64,000 nt of DNA from contig CAUVXB020000001.1 of assembly GCA_963555825.3 (NCBI GenBank), forward strand, positions 1,760,001 to 1,824,000. The letters run 5' to 3'. Position numbers and translations under genes: made by a program. Of the stretch, positions 28,166 to 54,588 are shown one piece after another (the first letter of the stretch is position 1; each line of letters opens with the position of its first letter). Source of the DNA: Alphaproteobacteria bacterium. GTDB lineage: Bacteria > Pseudomonadota > Alphaproteobacteria > JAAXGF01. The notes beneath the pieces were generated by a model, which was not told the origin of the DNA, did not search any database, and saw nothing but the letters and a program-made list of their open reading frames with translations.

Positions 28166-29819
28166 GGGTGTGGGTCTGGTATGGAAAATCTAAGTCATTG
28201 ATTTAGTGCGTTTTTTGTATCGAGACGAACGGCCGAAATCGGCTATTCGTGACAATGGGCCGCTCCAAGGCAGGATTTTGTCACGACGGCAGGGTCGAGC
28301 AGGGGAAGGTGGGAACGCTCCGCACCGCCAGAAGCGGTACGATGCCGTGTCTCGAAACCCAACATCGGGAGCATTCCCATGGCAGTATCCCCGCCTCCGG
28401 CGCCTTCGTCCATCGATCTTTCCGGCCTGCCTCCTCGGGTCGTCGAGGCGGCCGCCCGGGTGCTCGCACTGTGTCGCGAGGAGCTTCGTTCCGAGCCGCG
28501 CCCCGAGGCGCCCGAGGAGGTCGAGTTGCGGGTGCGTGAGGCCACGAACGAGTTCGCTCGCGATGTCATGGGCGCCGTCATCGAGAACCGGGACGATGGC
28601 GCTTCCCGGATCGAGCGGGACGGGCAGAGCTGGTTCCGGGTCGCGGTGACGCCGAAGACGATCATGACCTCGCTCGGTCCGGTGACCTACCGGCGAGCGC
28701 GTTACCGCAGCGGCGCGAGCGGGGCATCGCCGGTGCCGGTCGACGAGAGCCTGGGCCTCGTCGACGATTACCTGACGCGGCCGGCGGCCGAGCTCGGTCT
28801 GCTGATGATGGGTCACTGCACGGCCCGGGAAGCGGCGGCGTTCTTTGCGAAGACCGGCGCCATGACGCCGTCGGTGAGCACCCTGCAGCGCCTGACCCTG
28901 AGCATGCACGAATGCTGGGAGAGCCTCGGCCCGGAGACGCTGGGCAGCATCCGTGAGGCCGAGGGCATACCGCAGGACGCGACCACCGCCTCGGTCTCCC
29001 TCGACGGCGTCATGGTGCCGCTGAGACCCGGCGAGGACGGTCGCGCCAAGGCCTCCTGGCGCGAGGCTGCCTGCGGCACGGTCTCCTTCCACGACGCCGA
29101 GGGCAAGCGCCTGAAGACCCTCTATCTCGGCCGCATGCCGGAGAGCGGCAAGCTCACGCTGAAGGCGCAGCTTGCAAGCGAAGTCGCACACATCAGGCGA
29201 GCACGCCCCGAGATCGGGATCGTCGCTATCGCCGATGGCGCCGCCGACAACTGGACCTTCCTGGAGACCCTGTCGCCCGAAACCGAGGTGATCGACTTCT
29301 GGCATGCTTGCGAACATCTGCAAACCGCGTCCGACCATGCCGTGGCGCCCGGCTGGTTCGAGAAGTACCGCGAGATCCTCCGTCACGATCCCCGTGGCGT
29401 CGCCAAGGTGATCCGGGCGCTGCGCCACCTTCGCGATGCCGCCGCTGCGCCGGACCGGGCCGAGACCGAGCGGGAACTCGCCTTCTTCCGCAAGCATCGC
29501 CATCGCATGCGCTACCACGCCCTGAAGGAAGAGGGCATCGCCATCGGCTCAGGCGTGGTCGAAGCTGCCAACAAGACCCTGGTGACACAGCGCATGAAGC
29601 GCTCCGGCATGCGCTGGCGGATCGTCGGCGGACAGGCTGTTCTGACCTTCCGCGCCCTGATCAAATCCGGCCGCTTCGAGCGGGCATGGAAGGCCCTGAT
29701 CAGCGCAACCGACACACCGGCCAACGACAACATCAGTCCACGTGCAGCAGCCATGGCAATCGCTGCCTGAACTCAACGAACCAAGCCGCAGACATCACTG
29801 CCATGCGAGACTCGCACCC
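28166..29819 (+). mobile_element. ISKra4-like element, copy 2 (transposase 28379-29770)
   Basis: Near-identical to 9790-11443; 8-bp TSD CTTCAGAC. Confidence 0.88.
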
Positions 29820-30192
29820 CTTCAGACTTCACAGTTGTGATTGAGGGAGGGTGGATCAGTGATCCTCTGACGGTGTTTGCCCAAGTTCATGGACTAATAA
29901 CGGGTGTCCTCGCAATTCTGGATGGTCGTATCCCCATCGCTGTGTCTTGCACGTCGATGTTAAGGGGTTTCTCCGACATAGAAGGCCTCGTGGTGTCTAG
30001 TTTCTCCAACCATGAATTGCTAGATCAGCTGAGACGGAACTCAAACAGGGACACTCTGCTCTATGGGGACTGGGGGAGTACAAAGCCCAGAGACGATGGT
30101 TTTGGACGTAGACCATTCCCCAGGATCGATTACGCCACTGATAGGTCATGGCACTTCGCAAGGAACAAAGAACAGAGCTATAGCTGAATCTT

Positions 30193-31993
30193 GACGGGGC
30201 GGTAAAAAGTCGATTCCTCATGAGAGTCGGCTGGGTTATAATTGTGCATGTTTACTTTACGCGACCGACGGACCGGAGAATTGTTTGATCGCTGGTCCGA
30301 TTTCGGGGACAAACGTCGGCGCCTGATGGAGCAATCCTGGGCCGGGGTTTTTCGGAACCATCTGCTTGTCGAACTTCCGGTTGACGATCTTTGCCGTCAC
30401 CTTGATGAACGCATGGGCCGACCATCGAAGGATCTACACGTTGTCATCGGGGTCTTGCTTTTGCAGCAGCTGCACGATCTGAGCGATGCAGAGACCGTCG
30501 AGGCCCTGGCCTTCAATATGGCGTGGCACTATGCCTTGGACGTGCGCAGCGAAGCGGACAGCTATTTCTGTGAGAAAACCCTGCGCAACTATCGCCGTCT
30601 GTTTATCGAACAAGGTCTCGATGAATTGCTGTTCCGGTGTTTGACGGATCGGCTGGTGCAGGGGTTCTCTGTCGATACCAGCCACCAACGCATGGATTCG
30701 ACGGCCCTTCGTTCGGCAATGCGGGCGCTGACACGACTTGGTATCGTTGTTGAGAGCATCTCGAAGTTTGCCCGTGAGCTTGAGCGATATCATCCCGGTC
30801 TGCACGAGCAGATCAGCAAGGAGGTGATCCGCCGCTATGTCGATCGCGAGGGTAATGGCGCGTTCGCGAATACGGCGCCGAGTGTTTCAAAACGGCGCCT
30901 CGGCGAAGCGGGTCAGTATCTCCTAGCCCTGGTGCTGCAATTCCGTGACACGGCGGCGGCAAAGCTTTCCAGTTTTGCGATCCTGGAGAGGGTTCTGCGC
31001 GATCAGTTCGAGATCGTTGATGATGAGTATGGCGATCGTGACGCAACGCGCGCCGCGATTCGAGATCCAAAGGATGTGCCGTGCGATACCGTCGGCAATC
31101 CGGCCGACCCGGACGCGAGCTACAACGCGCACAAGGGTCAAGGATACATGGCGCAGATCGTCGAAACCTATTGTGAAGATGTCAGTAACGAGGCGGTTGC
31201 CGCGACACCGGACCTCATCACCCACGTGGAGGTCCACAAGATGACGGTGCATGACGGCCATCGCTTAGCCGATGCGCTGGATGATCTGAGCGAGCGCGCG
31301 CTGACGCCGGCGGTGATGCTGGGTGATTCACATTACGGTTCCAGTGACAACATGGCTCTGACGCGCGAACAGAACATCAATCTCGTGGCGCCCGCACGAC
31401 CGCCGAAAGGCGCCGTCTCGGGACGGTTGACGTTGGAGGATTTCACTCTCAACGAAGAAGGCTTGGTCTTGCGCTGTCCCAATAACGTCGAACCGGTTTC
31501 AGCCTCGCTCGCCAAAGCCAAGCTGCAGGCCCGTTTCGACCTCTCCATCTGCCAAAAATGTCCCGATATACTGCGATGTCCCGTGCAGGCGGCCAAGCGT
31601 GACGGCCAATTTTCCCGCTTTCAATATACCCCGGCCAGGGCTGCCAACCAAAAGCGCCGGCTTTATGAACAAAGCGATGCCTTCCGCGACGTCTACAGAT
31701 GGCGGGCCGGCATAGAAGCGACCATGTCGCGATTAAAGTACCAGATGAACCTGGCTCACCTACGCATTCGCGGCATGCCGGCCATGCGCTACGTGGTCAA
31801 TCTGCGTGCCCTCGGCCTCAATATCCGACGCTGCGCGGCAATCGCACCATAAAAAACGAAGCCAAGGAGAAGCCAAGGGTAGGTAATATCAGGTTTTATC
31901 CACCAGCAACGCGGAGACAGGCAAATATTCTTCACCGAACCGCAAAGACCTGTACAAGCACGCCATCGGCCAACAACTTTTTACCGCCCCGTC
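30193..31993 (+). mobile_element. IS1182-like element, copy A
   Basis: 18-bp IRs GACGGGGCGGTAAAAAGT; 7-bp TSD GAATCTT. Confidence 0.88.
30242..31852 (+). CDS. IS1182-like DDE transposase
   Basis: 536 aa; GRPS..., DST, GDSHYG, Cys-rich insertion, YRWRAGIEATMSRLK. Confidence 0.8.
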   Translation: MCMFTLRDRRTGELFDRWSDFGDKRRRLMEQSWAGVFRNHLLVELPVDDLCRHLDERMGRPSKDLHVVIGVLLLQQLHDLSDAETVEALAFNMAWHYALDVRSEADSYFCEKTLRNYRRLFIEQGLDELLFRCLTDRLVQGFSVDTSHQRMDSTALRSAMRALTRLGIVVESISKFARELERYHPGLHEQISKEVIRRYVDREGNGAFANTAPSVSKRRLGEAGQYLLALVLQFRDTAAAKLSSFAILERVLRDQFEIVDDEYGDRDATRAAIRDPKDVPCDTVGNPADPDASYNAHKGQGYMAQIVETYCEDVSNEAVAATPDLITHVEVHKMTVHDGHRLADALDDLSERALTPAVMLGDSHYGSSDNMALTREQNINLVAPARPPKGAVSGRLTLEDFTLNEEGLVLRCPNNVEPVSASLAKAKLQARFDLSICQKCPDILRCPVQAAKRDGQFSRFQYTPARAANQKRRLYEQSDAFRDVYRWRAGIEATMSRLKYQMNLAHLRIRGMPAMRYVVNLRALGLNIRRCAAIAP

Positions 31994-32033
31994 GAATCTT
32001 GGTGATGGAGAATGAAGGCGGCGTATCCTGGCG

Positions 32034-33329
32034 TTGATGAAGACGCCAATTTTCCGAAGAAAGGGATACGCCATGAAAGACGATACAGTTGTTGCGTTGC
32101 GCCAGCCAGAGTCATTTTCCGACGATCCGCTGACGGAGATATTGCGCGCCGGCGCCCGGCAGTTGCTTGGCCAGGCGATTGAAGCGGAAGTTGCCGCCCA
32201 TATTGAAGCCCATGCCGATTTGACCGACGCTTCGGGCCGGCGCCGTATTGTCCGTCACGGGCACATGCCGGAACGCGAGGTTCAGACCGGGATCGGAGCT
32301 GTGACGGTGAAGCGGCCAAGAGTGCGAGACCGAGATCCACAGGCCACGGGCGGGCGCATCCGTTTCACGTCATCGATCCTGCCGCCTTATCTCAGGCGCG
32401 CCAAGTCGGTCGAGGCGCTTCTGCCCTGGCTTTATCTGAAGGGCATCTCCAGCGGCGACTTTTCGGAGGCCCTGGCGGCGCTGCTGGGACCGGACGCGCC
32501 GGGCCTGACGGCCAGCACCATTGGCCGGCTGAAAGCGGTCTGGTGGGACGAATACGAAGCCTGGCAAAAGCGCGACCTTTCGGCTCGGCGCTACGTCTAT
32601 TTTTGGGCCGACGGGGTCTACTTCTCGCCTCGCATGGACCATGACAAACAGTGTGTTCTGGTGATCATCGGCGCCGACGCCATGGGCAACAAGGACATCG
32701 TCGGCATGGTCGACGGTTATCGAGAGAGCGCGCAAAGCTGGAAGGAACTGCTGCTTGATCTCAAGCGCCGGGGCTTGGAGACCGGCCCCGAGTTGGCCGT
32801 CGGCGACGGCGCCTTGGGCTTCTGGAAGGCGCTACGCGAGGTTTACGGAGAGACCAGGGTGCAGCGTTGCTGGGTCCACAAGACCGCCAACGTGCTCAAC
32901 CAGATGCCCAAATCCCTGCAGGCCAAAGCCAAGGGCCATCTGCACGACATCTGGATGGCCGAGACTAGGGCCGACGCCGAAGCCGCCTTCGACTTCTTCA
33001 TCGCAGCCTACGGCGCAAAATACCACAAGGCCGCAGAGCGCCTGGTCAAGGACCGTGAACGCCTGCTGAGCTTCTACGACTTCCCGGCCGAGCACTGGAA
33101 GCACATCCGCACCACCAACCCCATCGAAAGCACCTTCGCCACGGTGCGCCTGAGGACCGTGAAGACCAAGGGGTGCCTGAGCCGCAAGACGGCGCTCGCC
33201 ATGGCCTTCAAACTGATCTTGAGTGCCAGGCGGAAATGGCGGAAGCTGGACGGATCAAATCAACTCGCCGAACTCGTCGAAGGAGTGCCGTTCAAGGACG
33301 GAATCAAGATAACCAAACACGCCGCCTGA
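32034..33329 (+). CDS. IS256-family transposase
   Basis: WADGVY, VGDGALGFW, QRCWVHK, TTNPIES. Confidence 0.92.
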   Translation: MMKTPIFRRKGYAMKDDTVVALRQPESFSDDPLTEILRAGARQLLGQAIEAEVAAHIEAHADLTDASGRRRIVRHGHMPEREVQTGIGAVTVKRPRVRDRDPQATGGRIRFTSSILPPYLRRAKSVEALLPWLYLKGISSGDFSEALAALLGPDAPGLTASTIGRLKAVWWDEYEAWQKRDLSARRYVYFWADGVYFSPRMDHDKQCVLVIIGADAMGNKDIVGMVDGYRESAQSWKELLLDLKRRGLETGPELAVGDGALGFWKALREVYGETRVQRCWVHKTANVLNQMPKSLQAKAKGHLHDIWMAETRADAEAAFDFFIAAYGAKYHKAAERLVKDRERLLSFYDFPAEHWKHIRTTNPIESTFATVRLRTVKTKGCLSRKTALAMAFKLILSARRKWRKLDGSNQLAELVEGVPFKDGIKITKHAA

Positions 33330-33608
33330 TAGCTCCGTCACCAACTTTCGGACATAGCTCACTACCGCAGGGCGGCCGAGGCTATTGTGGGTAGCCCTGC
33401 TTGGAATGGTCAACTTGGTATCTGGGGCGAAGAGATGATCAAGGACACGGCGATTAATCCGTCATTCGCAATTGACACGCCACAGAAAAATGTAGCCGCT
33501 CGGGTAAACATCCACCTCCACCGGCAGGCCCTTCACGGCGAAGATTTCAGTGGTATAGACTTGGACGAAGATTGGGTTGACTAGCCACTCGAGGTCCTTC
33601 CACCGTAA

Positions 33609-33716
33609 GAGCCGATCCAAGAAGTTGTTGGATCGGATGAATCGGTTGTAATTCATTGTTGGGCACTCGAAACATTTCGGAGGGTTGCGCGATGTGGACG
33701 CCCGAAAACCGGCAAG
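33609..33716 (+). mobile_element. IS5-family left-end remnant
   Basis: TAA|GAGCCGATCC end followed by RBS and an MWTPENR transposase start. Confidence 0.45.
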
Positions 33717-34223
33717 CTATCAGCCTGATAGCGCGCTCAGCAAGTGGTTCAACGAGCGCACTGTGGGGTCCCGCGGGCGGATCCGCCGGGTGATGATCGT
33801 GGCGCTCGCCCGCAAGCTGCTCATCGCGCTCTGGCGGTTCTCCGAGACCGGCCTCGTGCCGACTGGCGCCAAGCTCGCCTGATCGCAAGACCGCGCTGTT
33901 CCAGACCGGCCGGACGCGGCCGGGGCTGGGTCGGGTGGCGAGTGGCCGAGGCTCTTGCGGGCTGAAACACGCCGACCGAGAGATGGGCCCCGCCTCCGGA
34001 ACGCTGCGTCCGCAGCAAGCGGGATCGAGGGACGGTTCCGGCGCTCCGTCGCCGAAAAACCTCCCGCATAAGAGTTGGGTATGCGCACAAGCGCGACCGA
34101 TGCGAAAAGCGTTCCGACCTGGCTACAAAGGCAAACCAACCGTCAATCCGACCAACCCAGAAAACGAGTTCGCCATGCAGTAAACCCAACCAACTTCTCC
34201 GCTTGACTGCGTCTGCCCTCATA
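33717..34223 (+). mobile_element. IS110-family right-end remnant with a long 3' non-coding region
   Basis: YQPDSALSKWF...IVALARKLLIALWR C-terminus; ~340-nt tail ending CTTGAC...CCCTCATA. Confidence 0.75.
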
Positions 34224-34726
34224 AGAGCGAGAGCTTTAGCCGCAGGCGGGCGAGGGCGGATGCCGAAGAGGGTGTCTCCGCCCGGTTCCGCATTCACGCA
34301 ATCCCGGAGACTGAGAACGGCAGAGCAATAATCCCCCACTGAAGCGGCCGGTCGATCCGGCTGCGGCGGACCAAAATGGGACCGCGTATAGCCTTCTGTC
34401 AGGGTTGCTCTGACTGGAAGGCGGGGGGGATGTATCGGGTGGAGTTGTACGCACGGGTTCGGCGGGCGTGTCATGTCGAGGGGATGAGCACCCGCGAGGC
34501 CTCGCGGGTGTTTGGTGTAGACCGCAAGACGGTCCGTAAGATGCTGTCGTTCTCGGTGCCGCCAGGGTATCGCCGAAGCGCGCCGCCGAGGCGGCCAAAG
34601 CTGGGTCCGTTCACGGGAATCATCGATCGGATCTTGGAAGACGATCGGACCAGCCACCGCAAGCAACGGCACACTGCGAAGCGCATCTTCGACCGGAGCT
34701 ATGTCCGAAAGTTGGTGACGGAGCTA

Positions 34727-36022
34727 TCAGGCGGCGTGTTTGGTTATCTTGATTCCGTCCTTGAACGGCACTCCTTCGACGAGTTCGGCGAGTTGATTTG
34801 ATCCGTCCAGCTTCCGCCATTTCCGCCTGGCACTCAAGATCAGTTTGAAGGCCATGGCGAGCGCCGTCTTGCGGCTCAGGCACCCCTTGGTCTTCACGGT
34901 CCTCAGGCGCACCGTGGCGAAGGTGCTTTCGATGGGGTTGGTGGTGCGGATGTGCTTCCAGTGCTCGGCCGGGAAGTCGTAGAAGCTCAGCAGGCGTTCA
35001 CGGTCCTTGACCAGGCGCTCTGCGGCCTTGTGGTATTTTGCGCCGTAGGCTGCGATGAAGAAGTCGAAGGCGGCTTCGGCGTCGGCCCTAGTCTCGGCCA
35101 TCCAGATGTCGTGCAGATGGCCCTTGGCTTTGGCCTGCAGGGATTTGGGCATCTGGTTGAGCACGTTGGCGGTCTTGTGGACCCAGCAACGCTGCACCCT
35201 GGTCTCTCCGTAAACCTCGCGTAGCGCCTTCCAGAAGCCCAAGGCGCCGTCGCCGACGGCCAACTCGGGGCCGGTCTCCAAGCCCCGGCGCTTGAGATCA
35301 AGCAGCAGTTCCTTCCAGCTTTGCGCGCTCTCTCGATAACCGTCGACCATGCCGACGATGTCCTTGTTGCCCATGGCGTCGGCGCCGATGATCACCAGAA
35401 CACACTGTTTGTCATGGTCCATGCGAGGCGAGAAGTAGACCCCGTCGGCCCAAAAATAGACGTAGCGCCGAGCCGAAAGGTCGCGCTTTTGCCAGGCTTC
35501 GTATTCGTCCCACCAGACCGCTTTCAGCCGGCCAATGGTGCTGGCCGTCAGGCCCGGCGCGTCCGGTCCCAGCAGCGCCGCCAGGGCCTCCGAAAAGTCG
35601 CCGCTGGAGATGCCCTTCAGATAAAGCCAGGGCAGAAGCGCCTCGACCGACTTGGCGCGCCTGAGATAAGGCGGCAGGATCGATGACGTGAAACGGATGC
35701 GCCCGCCCGTGGCCTGTGGATCTCGGTCTCGCACTCTTGGCCGCTTCACCGTCACAGCTCCGATCCCGGTCTGAACCTCGCGTTCCGGCATGTGCCCGTG
35801 ACGGACAATACGGCGCCGGCCCGAAGCGTCGGTCAAATCGGCATGGGCTTCAATATGGGCGGCAACTTCCGCTTCAATCGCCTGGCCAAGCAACTGCCGG
35901 GCGCCGGCGCGCAATATCTCCGTCAGCGGATCGTCGGAAAATGACTCTGGCTGGCGCAACGCAACAACTGTATCGTCTTTCATGGCGTATCCCTTTCTTC
36001 GGAAAATTGGCGTCTTCATCAA
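34727..36022 (-). CDS. IS256-family transposase
   Basis: Same protein as 32034-33329. Confidence 0.92.
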   Translation of the reverse strand: MMKTPIFRRKGYAMKDDTVVALRQPESFSDDPLTEILRAGARQLLGQAIEAEVAAHIEAHADLTDASGRRRIVRHGHMPEREVQTGIGAVTVKRPRVRDRDPQATGGRIRFTSSILPPYLRRAKSVEALLPWLYLKGISSGDFSEALAALLGPDAPGLTASTIGRLKAVWWDEYEAWQKRDLSARRYVYFWADGVYFSPRMDHDKQCVLVIIGADAMGNKDIVGMVDGYRESAQSWKELLLDLKRRGLETGPELAVGDGALGFWKALREVYGETRVQRCWVHKTANVLNQMPKSLQAKAKGHLHDIWMAETRADAEAAFDFFIAAYGAKYHKAAERLVKDRERLLSFYDFPAEHWKHIRTTNPIESTFATVRLRTVKTKGCLSRKTALAMAFKLILSARRKWRKLDGSNQLAELVEGVPFKDGIKITKHAA

Positions 36023-36062
36023 CGCCAGGATACGCCGCCTTCATTCTCCATCACCAAGATTC

Positions 36063-37850
36063 GACGGGGCGGTAAAAAGTCGATTCCTCATGAGAGTCGG
36101 CTGGATTATAATTGTGCATGTTTACTTTACGCGACCGACGGACTGGGGAATTGTTTGATCGCTGGTCCGATTTCGGGGACAAACGTCGGCGCCTGATGGA
36201 GCAATCCTGGGCCGGGGTTTTTCGGAACCATCTGCTTGTCGAACTTCCGGTTGACGATCTTTGCCGTCACCTTGATGAACGCATGGGCCGACCATCGAAG
36301 GATCTACACGTTGTCATCGGGGTCTTGCTTTTGCAGCAGCTGCACGATCTGAGCGATGCAGAGACCGTCGAGGCCCTGGCCTTCAATATGGCGTGGCACT
36401 ATGCCTTGGACGTGCGCAGCGAAGCGGACAGCTATTTCTGTGAGAAAACCCTGCGCAACTATCGCCGTCTGTTTATCGAACAAGGTCTCGATGAATTGCT
36501 GTTCCGGTGTTTGACGGATCGGCTGGTGCAGGGGTTCTCTGTCGATACCAGCCACCAACGCATGGATTCGACGGCCCTTCGTTCGGCAATGCGGGCGCTG
36601 ACACGACTTGGTATCGTTGTTGAGAGCATCTCGAAGTTTGCCCGTGAGCTTGAGCGATATCATCCCGGTCTGCACGAGCAGATCAGCAAGGAGGTGATCC
36701 GCCGCTATGTCGATCGCGAGGGTAATGGCGCGTTCGCGAATACGGCGCCGAGTGTTTCAAAACGGCGCCTCGGCGAAGCGGGTCAGTATCTCCTAGCCCT
36801 GGTGCTGCAATTCCGTGACACGGCGGCGGCAAAGCTTTTCAGTTTTGCGATCCTGGAGAGGGTTCTGCGCGATCAGTTCGAGATCGTTGATGATGAGTAT
36901 GGCGATCGTGACGCAACGCGCGCCGCGATTCGAGATCCAAAGGATGTGCCGTGCGATACCGTCGGCAATCCGGCCGACCCGGACGCGAGCTACAACGCGC
37001 ACAAGGGTCAAGGATACATGGCGCAGATCGTCGAAACCTATTGTGAAGATGTCAGTAACGAGGCGGTTGCCGCGACACCGGACCTCATCACCCACGTGGA
37101 GGTCCACAAGATGACGGTGCATGACGGCCATCGCTTGGCCGATGCGCTGGATGATCTGAGCGAGCGCGCGCTGACGCCGGCGGTGATGCTGGGTGATTCA
37201 CATTACGGTTCCAGTGACAACATGGCTCTGACGCGCGAACAGAACATCAATCTCGTGGCGCCCGCACGACCGCCGAAAGGCGCCGTCTCGGGACGGTTGA
37301 CGTTGGAGGATTTCACTCTCAACGAAGAAGGCTTGGTCTTGCGCTGTCCCAATAACGTCGAACCGGTTTCAGCCTCGCTCGCCAAAGCCAAGCTGCAGGC
37401 CCGTTTCGACCTCTCCATCTGCCAAAAATGTCCCGATATACTGCGATGTCCCGTGCAGGCGGCCAAGCGTGACGGCCAATTTTCCCGCTTTCAATATACC
37501 CCGGCCAGGGCTGCCAACCAAAAGCGCCGGCTTTATGAACAAAGCGATGCCTTCCGCAACGTCTACAGATGGCGGGCCGGCATAGAAGCGACCATGTCGC
37601 GATTAAAGTACCAGATGAACCTGGCTCACCTACGCATTCGCGGCATGCCGGCCATGCGCTACGTGGTCAATCTGCGTGCCCTCGGCCTCAATATCCGACG
37701 CTGCGCGGCAATCGCACCATAAAAAACGAAGCCAAGGAGAAGCCATCGTAATATCAGGTTTTTCCACCAGCAACGCGGATCGGCAAATATTCTTCACCGA
37801 ACCGCAAAGACCGTACAAGCAATCGGCCAACAACTTTTTACCGCCCCGTC
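36063..37850 (+). mobile_element. IS1182-like element, copy B
   Basis: Same IRs as copy A; TSD AAGATTC (GAATCTT on the IS256 strand). Confidence 0.88.
36112..37722 (+). CDS. IS1182-like DDE transposase
   Basis: 536 aa; differs from copy A by S>F and D>N. Confidence 0.8.
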   Translation: MCMFTLRDRRTGELFDRWSDFGDKRRRLMEQSWAGVFRNHLLVELPVDDLCRHLDERMGRPSKDLHVVIGVLLLQQLHDLSDAETVEALAFNMAWHYALDVRSEADSYFCEKTLRNYRRLFIEQGLDELLFRCLTDRLVQGFSVDTSHQRMDSTALRSAMRALTRLGIVVESISKFARELERYHPGLHEQISKEVIRRYVDREGNGAFANTAPSVSKRRLGEAGQYLLALVLQFRDTAAAKLFSFAILERVLRDQFEIVDDEYGDRDATRAAIRDPKDVPCDTVGNPADPDASYNAHKGQGYMAQIVETYCEDVSNEAVAATPDLITHVEVHKMTVHDGHRLADALDDLSERALTPAVMLGDSHYGSSDNMALTREQNINLVAPARPPKGAVSGRLTLEDFTLNEEGLVLRCPNNVEPVSASLAKAKLQARFDLSICQKCPDILRCPVQAAKRDGQFSRFQYTPARAANQKRRLYEQSDAFRNVYRWRAGIEATMSRLKYQMNLAHLRIRGMPAMRYVVNLRALGLNIRRCAAIAP

Positions 37851-39106
37851 AAGATTCAGCTATAGCTCTTCGACCGCCTCCGGGACGAGTACGGTTTCAC
37901 GGGCGGCTACACCATCGTGAAGGACTACGTTCGTGAGCAGGGGCTTCGGTCGCGTGAGGTGTTCGTGCCACTCTCCCATTCCCCCGGTCACGCCCAGGCG
38001 GACTTCGGCGAAGCGATGGCGGTGATCGGCGGCGCGTTACGGAAGATCCACTTCCTTGCCTTCGACCTTCCCCACAGTGATGGTTGCTTTGTTGCGGCCT
38101 ATCCGGCGGAGACGACCGAAGCATTCTGCGATGGCCACAACGCGGCGTTTGCCTTCTTCGGCGGCGTCCCCCGATCCATCCTGTACGACAACACCAAGCT
38201 GGCGGTTGCCCGGATCCTGGGCGATGGGAAGCGGCAGCGAACGCGCGTCTTCACGGAGCTTCAGTCCCACTATCTGTTCGAGGACAGGTTCGGCCGGCCG
38301 GGCAAGGGCAACGACAAGGGCAAGGTCGAGGGACTGGTCGGCTTCATCCGGCGGAACTTCCTGGTCCCCGTCCCGCGTGCCGAGAGCTTCGCGGCCCTCA
38401 ACGATGCTCTCGCCGAACAGTGCCGCCGGCGCCAGGCGGCGCGGCTGCGGGGCCACAAGGAGACCATCGGCGAGCGTCTCGAGCGGGATCGTCAAGTTCT
38501 CTTGCCATTGCCGCCTGCTCCCTATGATGCCTGCGATAAGCGCCCTGGACGGGCGAGTTCGCTGTCGCTGGTGCGTTACCGCAGCAACGACTATTCCGTG
38601 CCCGTGGCCTACGGCCACCGTGAGGTGCTCATCCGGGGCTACGTCGATGAGGTGGTGATCAGCTGCGGGGCCGAGGTGATCGCCCGGCACCGCCGGTCCT
38701 ACGACAGCGAGGACCTGATCTTCGACCCGCTGCATTACCTGCCCTTGATCGAGCAGAAGATCGGCGCCCTCGACCAGGCCGCGCCATTGGCGGGCTGGGA
38801 CCTGCCCGAGGCCTTCATCACTCTGCGGCGGCTCCTCGAAGCTCGTATGGGCAAGGCAGGCAAGCGCGAGTACGTCCAGGTGCTCCGTCTACTGGAGACC
38901 TTCCGGCTCGAGGAGGTCGAGGGTGCGGTCGGCGACGCCCTGCGGCTCGGCGCAATCGGCTTTGATGCGGTGAAGCACCTGGTACTGTGCCGCATCGAGC
39001 GGCGGCCGCCCAGGCTCAACCTCGACGTCTATCCGTATCTGCCGCGCGCCCGGGTCGCGATGACGTCCGCCAAGTCGTACATGAGCCTGCTGTCGGGGCT
39101 CGGCGC

Positions 39107-39871
39107 ATGACCGACACACCGCAAGTGCTGCTCGCCCACCACCTCAAGACGCTGAAGCTGCCGACCTTCCTGCGCGAGTACGACAAGATCGCCCGGCAGT
39201 GCGCCTCGGAAGGCGTCGATCACGTCCGCTACCTGTTGAGACTCGCCGAGCTCGAGCTGATCGACCGCGAGCGCCGCATGGTCGAGCGGCGCATCAAGGC
39301 GGCGCGCTTCCCCGTGGTCAAGAGCCTCGACAGCTTCGACTTCAAGGTCATCCCCTCGCTCAACAAGGCGCTGGTCCTGGAGCTGGCCCGCTGCGAGTAC
39401 ATCGAGCGCCGCGAGAACCTCATCGCGCTCGGCAACAGTGGGACCGGCAAGACCCACATCGCCCTCGGTCTCGGCCTGGCGGCCTGCCAGAAGGGCCTCT
39501 CGGTCGGCTTCATCACCGCCGCCGCGCTGGTCCACGAACTCATCGAGGCCCGCGATGACAAGCAGCTGCTGAGGTTCCAGAAGAAGCTCGCCACCTACAA
39601 GCTTCTGATCGTCGACGAACTCGGCTTCGTGCCGCTGTCGAAGACCGGCGCCGAGCTGTTGTTCGAGGTGTTCAGCCAACGCTACGAGCGGGGCTCGACC
39701 CTGGTCACCACCAATCTGCCCTTCGACGAATGGACCGAGGTGTTCGGCTCCGAGCGCCTCACCGGCGCGCTCCTCGATCGCCTCACCCACCACGTCAACA
39801 TCCTCGAGATGAACGGTGACAGCTACAGGCTCAACCAGAGCCGCAGGCGTCAAACCCCGACTGCTAACTGA
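39107..39871 (+). CDS. istB: IS21 helper ATPase
   Basis: GNSGTGKT, LLIVDELG, ALLDRLTHH. Confidence 0.93.
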   Translation: MTDTPQVLLAHHLKTLKLPTFLREYDKIARQCASEGVDHVRYLLRLAELELIDRERRMVERRIKAARFPVVKSLDSFDFKVIPSLNKALVLELARCEYIERRENLIALGNSGTGKTHIALGLGLAACQKGLSVGFITAAALVHELIEARDDKQLLRFQKKLATYKLLIVDELGFVPLSKTGAELLFEVFSQRYERGSTLVTTNLPFDEWTEVFGSERLTGALLDRLTHHVNILEMNGDSYRLNQSRRRQTPTAN

Positions 39872-53210: not shown

Positions 53211-54588
53211 GAGCTATAGCTGAATCTTGGTGATGGAGAATGAAGGCGGCGTATCCTGGCGTTGATGAAGACGCCAATTTTCCGAAGAAAGGGATACGCC
53301 ATGAAAGACGATACAGTTGTTGCGTTGCGCCAGCCAGAGTCATTTTCCGACGATCCGCTGACGGAGATATTGCGCGCCGGCGCCCGGCAGTTGCTTGGCC
53401 AGGCGATTGAAGCGGAAGTTGCCGCCCATATTGAAGCCCATGCCGATTTGACCGACGCTTCGGGCCGGCGCCGTATTGTCCGTCACGGGCACATGCCGGA
53501 ACGCGAGGTTCAGACCGGGATCGGAGCTGTGACGGTGAAGCGGCCAAGAGTGCGAGACCGAGATCCACAGGCCACGGGCGGGCGCATCCGTTTCACGTCA
53601 TCGATCCTGCCGCCTTATCTCAGGCGCGCCAAGTCGGTCGAGGCGCTTCTGCCCTGGCTTTATCTGAAGGGCATCTCCAGCGGCGACTTTTCGGAGGCCC
53701 TGGCGGCGCTGCTGGGACCGGACGCGCCGGGCCTGACGGCCAGCACCATTGGCCGGCTGAAAGCGGTCTGGTGGGACGAATACGAAGCCTGGCAAAAGCG
53801 CGACCTTTCGGCTCGGCGCTACGTCTATTTTTGGGCCGACGGGGTCTACTTCTCGCCTCGCATGGACCATGACAAACAGTGTGTTCTGGTGATCATCGGC
53901 GCCGACGCCATGGGCAACAAGGACATCGTCGGCATGGTCGACGGTTATCGAGAGAGCGCGCAAAGCTGGAAGGAACTGCTGCTTGATCTCAAGCGCCGGG
54001 GCTTGGAGACCGGCCCCGAGTTGGCCGTCGGCGACGGCGCCTTGGGCTTCTGGAAGGCGCTACGCGAGGTTTACGGAGAGACCAGGGTGCAGCGTTGCTG
54101 GGTCCACAAGACCGCCAACGTGCTCAACCAGATGCCCAAATCCCTGCAGGCCAAAGCCAAGGGCCATCTGCACGACATCTGGATGGCCGAGACTAGGGCC
54201 GACGCCGAAGCCGCCTTCGACTTCTTCATCGCAGCCTACGGCGCAAAATACCACAAGGCCGCAGAGCGCCTGGTCAAGGACCGTGAACGCCTGCTGAGCT
54301 TCTACGACTTCCCGGCCGAGCACTGGAAGCACATCCGCACCACCAACCCCATCGAAAGCACCTTCGCCACGGTGCGCCTGAGGACCGTGAAGACCAAGGG
54401 GTGCCTGAGCCGCAAGACGGCGCTCGCCATGGCCTTCAAACTGATCTTGAGTGCCAGGCGGAAATGGCGGAAGCTGGACGGATCAAATCAACTCGCCGAA
54501 CTCGTCGAAGGAGTGCCGTTCAAGGACGGAATCAAGATAACCAAACACGCCGCCTGATAGCTCCGTCACCAACTTTCGGACATAGCTC
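53211..54588 (+). mobile_element. IS256 type C, copy 3, intact left IR
   Basis: 9-bp TSD GTAATCGTC; uninterrupted GAGCTATAGCTGAATCTTGGTGATGGAG. Confidence 0.92.
53262..54557 (+). CDS. IS256-family transposase
   Basis: Same protein as 32034-33329. Confidence 0.92.
   Translation: MMKTPIFRRKGYAMKDDTVVALRQPESFSDDPLTEILRAGARQLLGQAIEAEVAAHIEAHADLTDASGRRRIVRHGHMPEREVQTGIGAVTVKRPRVRDRDPQATGGRIRFTSSILPPYLRRAKSVEALLPWLYLKGISSGDFSEALAALLGPDAPGLTASTIGRLKAVWWDEYEAWQKRDLSARRYVYFWADGVYFSPRMDHDKQCVLVIIGADAMGNKDIVGMVDGYRESAQSWKELLLDLKRRGLETGPELAVGDGALGFWKALREVYGETRVQRCWVHKTANVLNQMPKSLQAKAKGHLHDIWMAETRADAEAAFDFFIAAYGAKYHKAAERLVKDRERLLSFYDFPAEHWKHIRTTNPIESTFATVRLRTVKTKGCLSRKTALAMAFKLILSARRKWRKLDGSNQLAELVEGVPFKDGIKITKHAA

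Follow-up and report, generated by a model that had tools for sequence, protein, structure and literature searches.

A 64,000-bp stretch of an alphaproteobacterial genome assembly (GCA_963555825.3, contig CAUVXB020000001.1, positions 1,760,001 to 1,824,000; hereafter the window) carries three copies of an insertion sequence (IS) of the IS256 type, two of which are interrupted at the same base of a terminal inverted repeat (IR) by a second, 1.8-kb IS. This second element, which we call the passenger, is bounded at both places by a 7-bp target-site duplication (TSD). The survey of its copies in the source genome and elsewhere leads us to regard the passenger as very probably an autonomous IS1182-like DDE element whose transposase chooses its target by DNA sequence, with the IR of one IS256 subgroup as its preferred site.

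Two insertions at the same base of an IS256 terminus

Direct reading of the empty IS256-type copy, element A, gives a left inverted repeat (IRL) of the form GAGCTATAGCT-GAATCTT-GGTGATGGAG beginning at 53211. In host copies 1 and 2 the passenger is lodged between IRL positions 11 and 19, and positions 12-18 are duplicated on both sides; comparison of the window copies shows that the passenger and its TSD are the only difference between the empty and the occupied IRL of element A (A-IRL). Host copy 3 is intact. The nested elements, their open reading frames (ORFs) and the right inverted repeats (IRRs) of the hosts are arranged as follows.

30175..30192, + strand: host A copy 1, IRL positions 1-18, made up of the 11-bp tip GAGCTATAGCT and the first TSD copy GAATCTT (30186-30192); same as positions 1-18 of the copy at 53211
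30193..31993, + strand: passenger copy 1, 1801 bp, with perfect 17-bp IRs (GACGGGGCGGTAAAAAG) at 30193-30209 and 31977-31993
30242/30248-31852, + strand: transposase ORF of passenger copy 1, 534 aa counted from the ATG at 30248
31994..33360, + strand: host A copy 1, positions 12-1378, with the second TSD copy GAATCTT at 31994-32000 and the IRR end at 33360
32034/32073-33329, + strand: IS256-family transposase ORF of host A copy 1
34688..34695 and 37869-37876, no strand: left and right copies of the 8-bp duplication TTCGACCG that host copy 2 produced on entering an IS21-type istA gene
34696..36062, - strand: host A copy 2, positions 1378 down to 12, with the IRR tip at 34696 and the TSD copy AAGATTC at 36056-36062
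34727..36022, - strand: transposase ORF of host A copy 2
36063..37850, + strand: passenger copy 2, 1788 bp, inverted relative to its host, with an intact ORF at 36112..37722
37851..37868, - strand: host A copy 2, IRL positions 18 down to 1, AAGATTC (37851-37857) followed by AGCTATAGCTC
37917..39110: istA-type ORF hit by host copy 2, with rve and Mu-transpos_C_2 domains
53211..54588, + strand: unoccupied host A copy 3, 1378 bp, with an intact IRL and the 9-bp duplication GTAATCGTC on each side

Both window passengers lie on the + strand, the host being on the + strand in copy 1 and on the - strand in copy 2, so that the two insertions have opposite orientations relative to their hosts. The passengers are 98.8% identical (8 mismatches and 7 gap openings, the indels falling in the 3' non-coding part). 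An earlier, sequence-only reading of this DNA had described a 1.8-kb IS1182-like element at the same base of two IS256 ends with GAATCTT duplicated, and this description matches the sequence base for base. The ORF strands likewise agree with its statement that the passenger is co-oriented in copy 1 and inverted in copy 2, and its remark that the passengers differ by single-nucleotide changes and indels while the IS256 proteins are identical holds at 98.8% for the passengers against 100% over 1367 bp for the host.

Passenger insertions across the source genome

The source assembly, G000, consists of 2 contigs (6.04 Mb), in which blastn with passenger copy 1 finds roughly 30 copies of full length and roughly 20 incomplete ones, with identities of 97-100%. 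Passenger termini located by exact 24-mers of each end number 35 left and 35 right, and 68 of these 70 adjoin an IS256-type IR at the register 18|12. The other two termini belong to a single insertion with the TSD GATCATC in single-copy DNA (GAACTATATCC-GATCATC-TCACATC), within 10 kb of which no IS256-type transposase was found. The preference of the passenger for the IS256-type IR register is therefore far beyond chance. The sequence-only reading had cast the passenger as a site-specific IS using IS256 ends and had set this against the prospect of further copies at unrelated sites; with the flanks of every terminus checked genome-wide and 68 of the 70 lying at IS256-type IRs in one register, that view is borne out.

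Three IR types are used in G000, namely A-IRL and both ends of a second IS256-type element (1375 bp, 72% identical in DNA to element A), whose IRL and IRR we call B and C. Flanks and occupation are as follows.

A-IRL, GAGCTATAGCT-GAATCTT: 10 occupied, 5 intact
A-IRR: 0 occupied, 16 intact
B (IRL of the second element), GAGCTATAACC-GAATCTT: 13 occupied, 25 intact
C (IRR of the second element), GAGCTATTGTC-AAAAGTT: 14 occupied, 27 intact
One solo tip: GAGCTATACCC-GAAAGTT

The TSD varies by site (GAATCTT, AAAAGTT, GAAAGTT and GATCATC), and the passenger shows no orientation bias, the end that faces the tip being its left one in 19 cases and its right one in 21. Two details of the sequence-only reading do not survive this tally. 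Targeting restricted to the IRL is contradicted by the second element, whose IRR is used as often (14 occupied, 27 intact) as its IRL (13 occupied, 25 intact), and a role for the palindrome AGCTATAGCT is contradicted by its presence in A-IRL only, the B and C ends being devoid of it.

Repeated and independent insertion

Alignment of 25 full-length passenger copies from G000 yields 43 variable columns. The consensus haplotype is found in B, in both orientations, and in C, and a haplotype with a single-T variant occurs in A-IRL, B and C, again in both orientations; moreover, each of the three IR types holds passengers of both orientations. Because every IR type holds both orientations, the TSD changes with the IR type, and the same haplotype can be found at several IR types and in either orientation, the insertions are repeated and independent events rather than the products of one multiplied composite. 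The same three points uphold the view of the sequence-only reading that simple copying of one composite is not the explanation.

The 34 full-length cores of the second element comprise 17 without a passenger, 9 occupied at the IRL only, 4 at the IRR only and 4 at both ends, three rows with the passenger-end variant ATCGCCCCGTC having been assigned by eye. Thus 17 cores carry at least one passenger, and the 4 with one at each end compare with about 3 doubles expected if the ends were hit independently. Recombination between passenger copies does occur, as seen in the G000 copy at C1 1654569, which has a C tip on one side and the inner part of B on the other. In addition, two pairs of A-IRL insertions are alike in haplotype and orientation (C1_1686161/C2_2760690 and C2_438014/C2_665003), and whole IS256::passenger composites may therefore have moved occasionally.

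Tip-like targets in a genome without detectable IS256

Passenger relatives in other genomes were collected by a scan of one genome per species. One of these genomes, G041, whose loci are titled 'MAG: Amylibacter sp.' (MAG, metagenome-assembled genome), contains a 99% identical passenger with 34 matches, about 31 of them full-length. No match to Transposase_mut (PF00872) at E<=1e-10 was obtained in G041, nor any GAGCTAT-type IR pattern; the same pattern occurs 21 times in G000 and 46 times in another passenger-bearing genome, G045, and the reversed control pattern gives 0. Of the insertion sites in G041, 29 could be resolved, 12 of them with an intact 7-bp TSD. The flanks are unique, no two of the 38 that were compared (600 bp each, from the 19 resolved copies on chromosome C1) being similar.

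The G041 sites were scored with a position weight matrix made solely from five G000 target sites, against a background of 88,689 positions from the same loci, the better of two orientations being taken for sites and background alike. Scores above the 99th background percentile were found for 22/29 sites (Mann-Whitney p=1.8e-19) and for 11/12 of those with an intact TSD. The G041 consensus reads GAGnTATAnCC | RAnnnTY | G; in the 12 intact sites the TSD has A at position 2 and T at position 6 in 12/12; G at position 1, T at position 7 and C at position 11 are each present in 10/12. The passenger has thus transposed many times in G041 without a detectable IS256 transposase or IR, choosing sequence that resembles the IR tip. 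G041 thus offers a ready-made natural control for IS256 dependence.

Relatives and the extent of the habit

The passenger recurs at 97-99% protein identity in several other MAGs (loci L031-L061, L063, L066, L075, L094 and L100), and its DNA is 98-99% identical in at least five other genomes (G041-G045), with the titles Amylibacter, Paracoccaceae, Rhodospirillales and Alphaproteobacteria. The presence of near-identical passengers in differently titled groups points to recent horizontal spread. G045, with its 46 intact GAGCTAT-type IRs, has just 3 passenger copies. Among 40 other related genomes none gave a close passenger match and one gave a 37% relative, from which little follows, since most of these are fragmented MAGs. 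A passenger relative (71.5%) is present in 1 of the 72,556 records of a plasmid collection, with no annotation beneath it, so that the collection yielded no named IS.

More distant relatives in genome contigs (55-88% protein identity) have the same kind of 17-20-bp IR (GAYGGGGCGGYAAAAAG) and lie at a distance of 11+7 bp from tips of the IS256-like kind. The MAGs in which they occur are titled Alphaproteobacteria, Rhodobacterales, Hyphomonas, Cypionkella and Planctomycetota, and a Microvirga plasmid also holds one. An IS256-type transposase adjoins the relatives at L059, L063, L064, L067, L068, L075, L076, L080 and L096. An independent scan of metagenome contigs, in which 80 of 397 confirmed relatives were kept and a flank was called tip-like at >=8 bits, gave the following counts.

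At least 70% identity: 13 readable, 9 tip-like, 3 with the inner side only, 12 IS256-IR-like in total
50-69% identity: 31 readable, 17 tip-like, 6 with the inner side only, 23 IS256-IR-like in total
Below 50% identity: 16 readable, 0 tip-like, 0 with the inner side only, 0 in total

On these sequence comparisons the use of IS256 IRs is conserved across the clade down to about 50% protein identity, a lower boundary that is approximate because 17 of the 33 loci below 50% are without a readable terminus.

A different arrangement is seen at nine loci outside G000 (L062, L065, L071, L079, L090, L093, L095, L097 and L098), where inverted 18-bp IS256 tips stand on both sides of the passenger. At L093, on the Microvirga plasmid, a 9-bp direct repeat, ATGGAGTGG, lies outside the tips and is a duplication of the IS256 kind. 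A host with a passenger at each end may have given rise to such tip-passenger-tip units through a deletion from one passenger to the other; alternatively, IS256 transposase may move them as units. We also observe that the passenger terminus GACGGGG (30193-30202) resembles, with a 3-bp shift, the subterminal GGTGACGG(G/A)G at positions 19-28 of several IS256-type IRs, examples being the right flank of L043 and A-IRR. This likeness may be due to chance, or an IS256-like IR may be restored in part at the outer junction.

Family assignment of passenger and hosts

The passenger transposase matches the Pfam domains PF05598 DUF772 (E=2e-12), PF13751 DDE_Tnp_1_6 (E=2.3e-13) and PF01609 DDE_Tnp_1 (E=2.4e-08), and thus shows the IS1182 architecture of a single DDE transposase with an N-terminal DUF772 and a C-terminal DDE_Tnp_1_6. 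Its best NCBIfam family is NF033551 (IS1182 family transposase, equivalog), matched over profile positions 31-487 of 488 at 173.5 bits against a cut-off of 270. Because this score falls under the cut-off we term the passenger IS1182-like; it represents a divergent clade rather than a certified IS1182 member. Elements of the IS1182 family have terminal inverted repeats, lengths of about 1.3-2 kb and a short TSD, and the passenger, with 1801 bp, perfect 17-bp IRs and a 7-bp TSD, is within these ranges. Only ~55 bp on the 5' side of its ORF and ~140 bp on the 3' side are non-coding, and the 3' stretch varies most among copies. The DDE transposase sets the passenger apart from IS1111/IS110-type elements, which combine a DEDD transposase with a non-coding guide RNA region. 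It also differs from IS1272-type elements, which insert into hairpin stems without a TSD and with partial target deletion, by its clean 7-bp TSDs at IS256 IRs and at the 12 unique G041 sites.

Assignment of the hosts is straightforward. The transposase of element A (1378 bp) matches PF00872 Transposase_mut with E=7.7e-59 (199.9 bits, cut-off 21) and the NCBIfam IS256 model NF033543 with 310.1 bits (cut-off 150), and all copies of element A align at 100% over 1367 bp. Both host elements encode Transposase_mut/NF033543 transposases and have IRs of ~28 bp and TSDs of 8-9 bp; with lengths of 1378 and 1375 bp and the duplications GTAATCGTC (9 bp) and TTCGACCG (8 bp), they correspond to the IS256 pattern of about 1.3-1.5 kb, imperfect IRs of ~25-30 bp and an 8-9-bp TSD. 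A third IS256-family group in the source genome (1450 bp, 29 copies in the largest cluster, IR GGAGATGTCCC...) is absent from the genome-wide set of passenger flanks, and membership of the IS256 family alone is therefore not the signal. The host cores are identical regardless of occupation (14 full-length cores of A; 32 of 34 for the second element), so that they carry no age signal and nothing follows from them on the mobility of occupied copies. The reverse nesting is also found: at C2:179225-180994 of the source genome a copy of element A (C2 179549-180926) lies within a passenger, whose pieces stop at position 324 and resume at 316, a 9-bp duplication, which indicates that IS256 also inserts into its parasite.

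Target choice and alternative explanations

Under the account that we favour, the preferred target would be an asymmetric motif of ~18-19 bp, 5'-GAGCTATNNCC | RANNNTY | G-3', corresponding to the outer part of the terminal IR in one IS256-family subgroup. The 7-bp duplication would follow from cuts with a 7-bp stagger, placed behind IR positions 11 and 18, and either orientation would result because the 17-bp ends of the passenger are perfect inverted repeats. We infer that the target is recognised by the transposase protein itself. IS256-type IRs would be the best genomic matches, numerous and harmless to hit, and for these reasons nearly all surviving copies would be located there; in a genome without such IRs the passenger would fall back on weaker look-alike sites. 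It is mainly the G041 insertions at tip-like sites without detectable IS256 that lead us to prefer sequence-directed targeting.

Several observations weigh against this account. Survivorship, in the sense that insertions in genes are selected against, must account for part of the near-exclusive location in IS256 seen in G000, where it is mixed with targeting. The A-IRR sequence (GAGCTATGTCC-GAAAGTT-GGTGACGGAG) scores 21.8 bits on the G000 matrix, like the sites that are used, and yet all 16 copies are intact and none is occupied; the difference from A-IRL (10 occupied, 5 intact) gives a Fisher p=6.8e-5 under the assumption of independent events, with only ~5 haplotype-by-orientation classes distinguishable in A-IRL. 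A simple motif model fails to account for this sparing of A-IRR. The matrix chose the orientation of the G041 sites, which inflates the apparent conservation at positions 1-18, and the absence of IS256 from G041 comes from one Pfam search of a two-contig MAG, in which a miss does not prove absence. In addition, head-to-tail passenger-7 bp-passenger junctions are present at L043 (2435) and L066 (2953) and, as read by eye from flanks, in the metagenome loci L123, L138 and L139, although there are none in G000. These tandem junctions represent insertions, or dimer formation, in which the tip side is replaced by a passenger end, and are a misfit with recognition of the tip side. In form they are similar to the dimer or circle junctions of ISs that transpose by copy-out/paste-in. 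The tip-passenger-tip units seen outside G000 are a further arrangement that fits poorly.

The sequence-only reading had left room for recruitment to end-bound IS256 transposase. Under recruitment the passenger would be drawn by IS256 transposase bound at the ends or at the circle junction and not by DNA sequence. The transposase of ISCth4, an IS256-family element, contacts bp 7-11 and 14-25 of its terminal inverted repeat (TIR), as given in a portion of PMC7780238, and the passenger insertion site lies between these two segments. Recruitment would also agree with the location of nearly all G000 copies in IS256-type IRs, and unequal roles of the two ends in the transpososome could be reflected in the A-IRL/A-IRR asymmetry. 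Nevertheless, we judge it improbable, because the passenger multiplied in G041 (34 matches, 12 TSD-flanked insertions in unique DNA) with no Transposase_mut match or IS256-type IR, and because its sites there resemble the IR tip by sequence. Moreover, one unique look-alike site was used in G000, the second element shows equal use of its two ends, and the co-resident IS256-family group with different ends never receives the passenger. Recognition of hairpins or palindromes rather than sequence would have a precedent in IS1272 and TnSha1 of the IS1182 family, which enter hairpin stems in either orientation and with little regard for primary sequence (excerpts of PMC4923244 and PMC5678879); A-IRL does hold the palindrome AGCTATAGCT, and the TSD consensus RANNNTY is two-fold symmetric. 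Such structural targeting is very unlikely here, however, since B, C and the G041 sites have the same register without such a palindrome, the conserved positions stand on one side of the cut, and a clean 7-bp TSD is the rule, whereas IS1272 makes none and deletes part of its target (part of PMC4923244).

It is more improbable still, to the point of being scarcely credible, that one or a few ancestral insertions gave rise to all copies through multiplication of the composite, the two orientations being produced by inversion between the 17-bp IRs or by recombination. The two A-IRL pairs sharing passenger haplotype and orientation do point in this direction, as do the hybrid flanks that reveal passenger-passenger recombination (C1 1654569 and the tip-passenger-tip loci), and an occupied IS256 might still move, given that the circle junction of ISCth4 remains able to integrate in vitro, if more slowly, once one TIR has been cut back to 14 bp (PMC7780238, in part). 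Copying would leave unexplained, however, three IR types with different TSDs and each with both orientations, the same passenger haplotypes across IR types, the four doubly occupied copies of the second element where ~3 are expected for independent ends, TSD-flanked insertions in unique DNA in both G041 and G000, and relatives of 50-88% identity in different IS256-type hosts in other phyla.

Sequence-directed insertion would have consequences for the host. At an occupied end, IR positions 1-18 stay at the outer junction and positions 12 onward are displaced by 1.8 kb; we infer that this separation of the terminal from the subterminal transposase-binding part of the IR would cripple the IS256 end concerned. 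By analogy with ISCth4, an occupied end is probably a poor donor end because the contiguous bipartite transposase site is lost, residual activity being conceivable. A wider extension is possible, if on balance doubtful: the passenger may belong to an old, protein-only DDE clade that reads a ~18-bp target and has long been specialised on IS256 ends in at least two phyla, disabling copies and damping bursts, with tip-passenger-tip units such as that at L093 being movable by IS256 transposase, in a two-level system of parasite and hyperparasite.

Comparison with known systems

Targeting of the IRs of other transposons by an IS is already known. The natural site of IS4321 and IS5075 (IS1111 family) is likewise a fixed position in the terminal IR of another transposon, here the 38-bp IR of the Tn21 family, as Partridge and Hall reportedly described in 2003. 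Part of PMC11187229 treats the IS4321 target logo, and elements of the IS1111/IS110 type have a DEDD transposase guided by a seekRNA or bridge RNA (portions of PMC11187229 and PMC11208160). IS4321 and IS5075 are RNA-guided DEDD elements with no TSD of this kind, and IS4321 inserts in one orientation, whereas the passenger is of the DDE type, makes a 7-bp TSD and inserts in both orientations. IS231A (IS4 family) resembles the passenger in being a DDE IS whose target is defined by sequence and shape and which has historically been linked to the ends of another transposon. The IR of Tn4430 is a hot spot for IS231A. Its target and its association with Tn4430 are reportedly treated by Hallet et al. 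(1991/1994) and Mahillon et al. (1987). It differs from the passenger in IS family and in target, and we know of no clade-wide, cross-phylum association for it. IS1272/TnSha1 (IS1182 family) are closest in transposase family and, as described in part of PMC4923244, share with the passenger a non-random target and both orientations at the same target. According to the same portion of PMC4923244, however, IS1272 uses hairpin stems with no primary-sequence consensus, cuts bluntly and leaves a partial target deletion without a TSD, in contrast to the sequence consensus and 7-bp TSD seen here. The IS256 family, represented for example by ISCth4, enters as the host type, and only the subgroup with GAGCTAT-type tips is used, not the co-resident GGAGATGTCCC-type.

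What differs here is the combination of a DDE enzyme with a long asymmetric sequence target and a 7-bp TSD, insertion in both orientations, the IS256-IR niche and clade-wide conservation. DDE-type ISs are generally thought to be weak in target preference, strict choice being found mostly in RNA-guided systems (IS110/IS1111 and CRISPR-associated transposons, CAST) or in systems with accessory proteins. A plain DDE IS that goes almost exclusively to a single position within a motif of 18-19 bp would provide a natural system for asking how a DDE transposase reads a long target. It would also make one IS family the ecological niche of another, which bears on burst-and-decay models in IS-rich genomes, and would account for one kind of assembly break and of nested annotation, IS1182-like within IS256, in these genomes. 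We found no report of an IS1182-type insertion into IS256 IRs in a literature search that left out most subscription journals, ISfinder and TnPedia, where the pairing may be noted.

The locus of host copy 1 and its surroundings

Host copy 1 is without a target duplication of its own (left ...CAAAGAACA, right ACTACCGCA...). A contig of public run X19 reads 29904-30174, then 8 other letters (AGACTGGG), then the sequence found at 33361, and an empty-site allele of this locus therefore exists in public data. The occupied allele at 30174/33361 is without these 8 letters, AGACTGGG, rather than duplicating them. None of the listed Logan contigs spans the unique flank, tip and passenger at 30174-30193, and the junction is neither confirmed nor contradicted by them. 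In contigs of public runs the left end of the passenger is preceded by other IS256-like tips, GAGCTATGGCC-GAGAGTG and GAGCTATGGAC-GAGAATA. Directly upstream, the ORF at 28379-29770 (463 aa) has a weak UPF0236 match and is probably another transposase-like gene. The window and the genome are extremely rich in ISs, among them IS21, at least three kinds of IS256 and the IS1182-like element.

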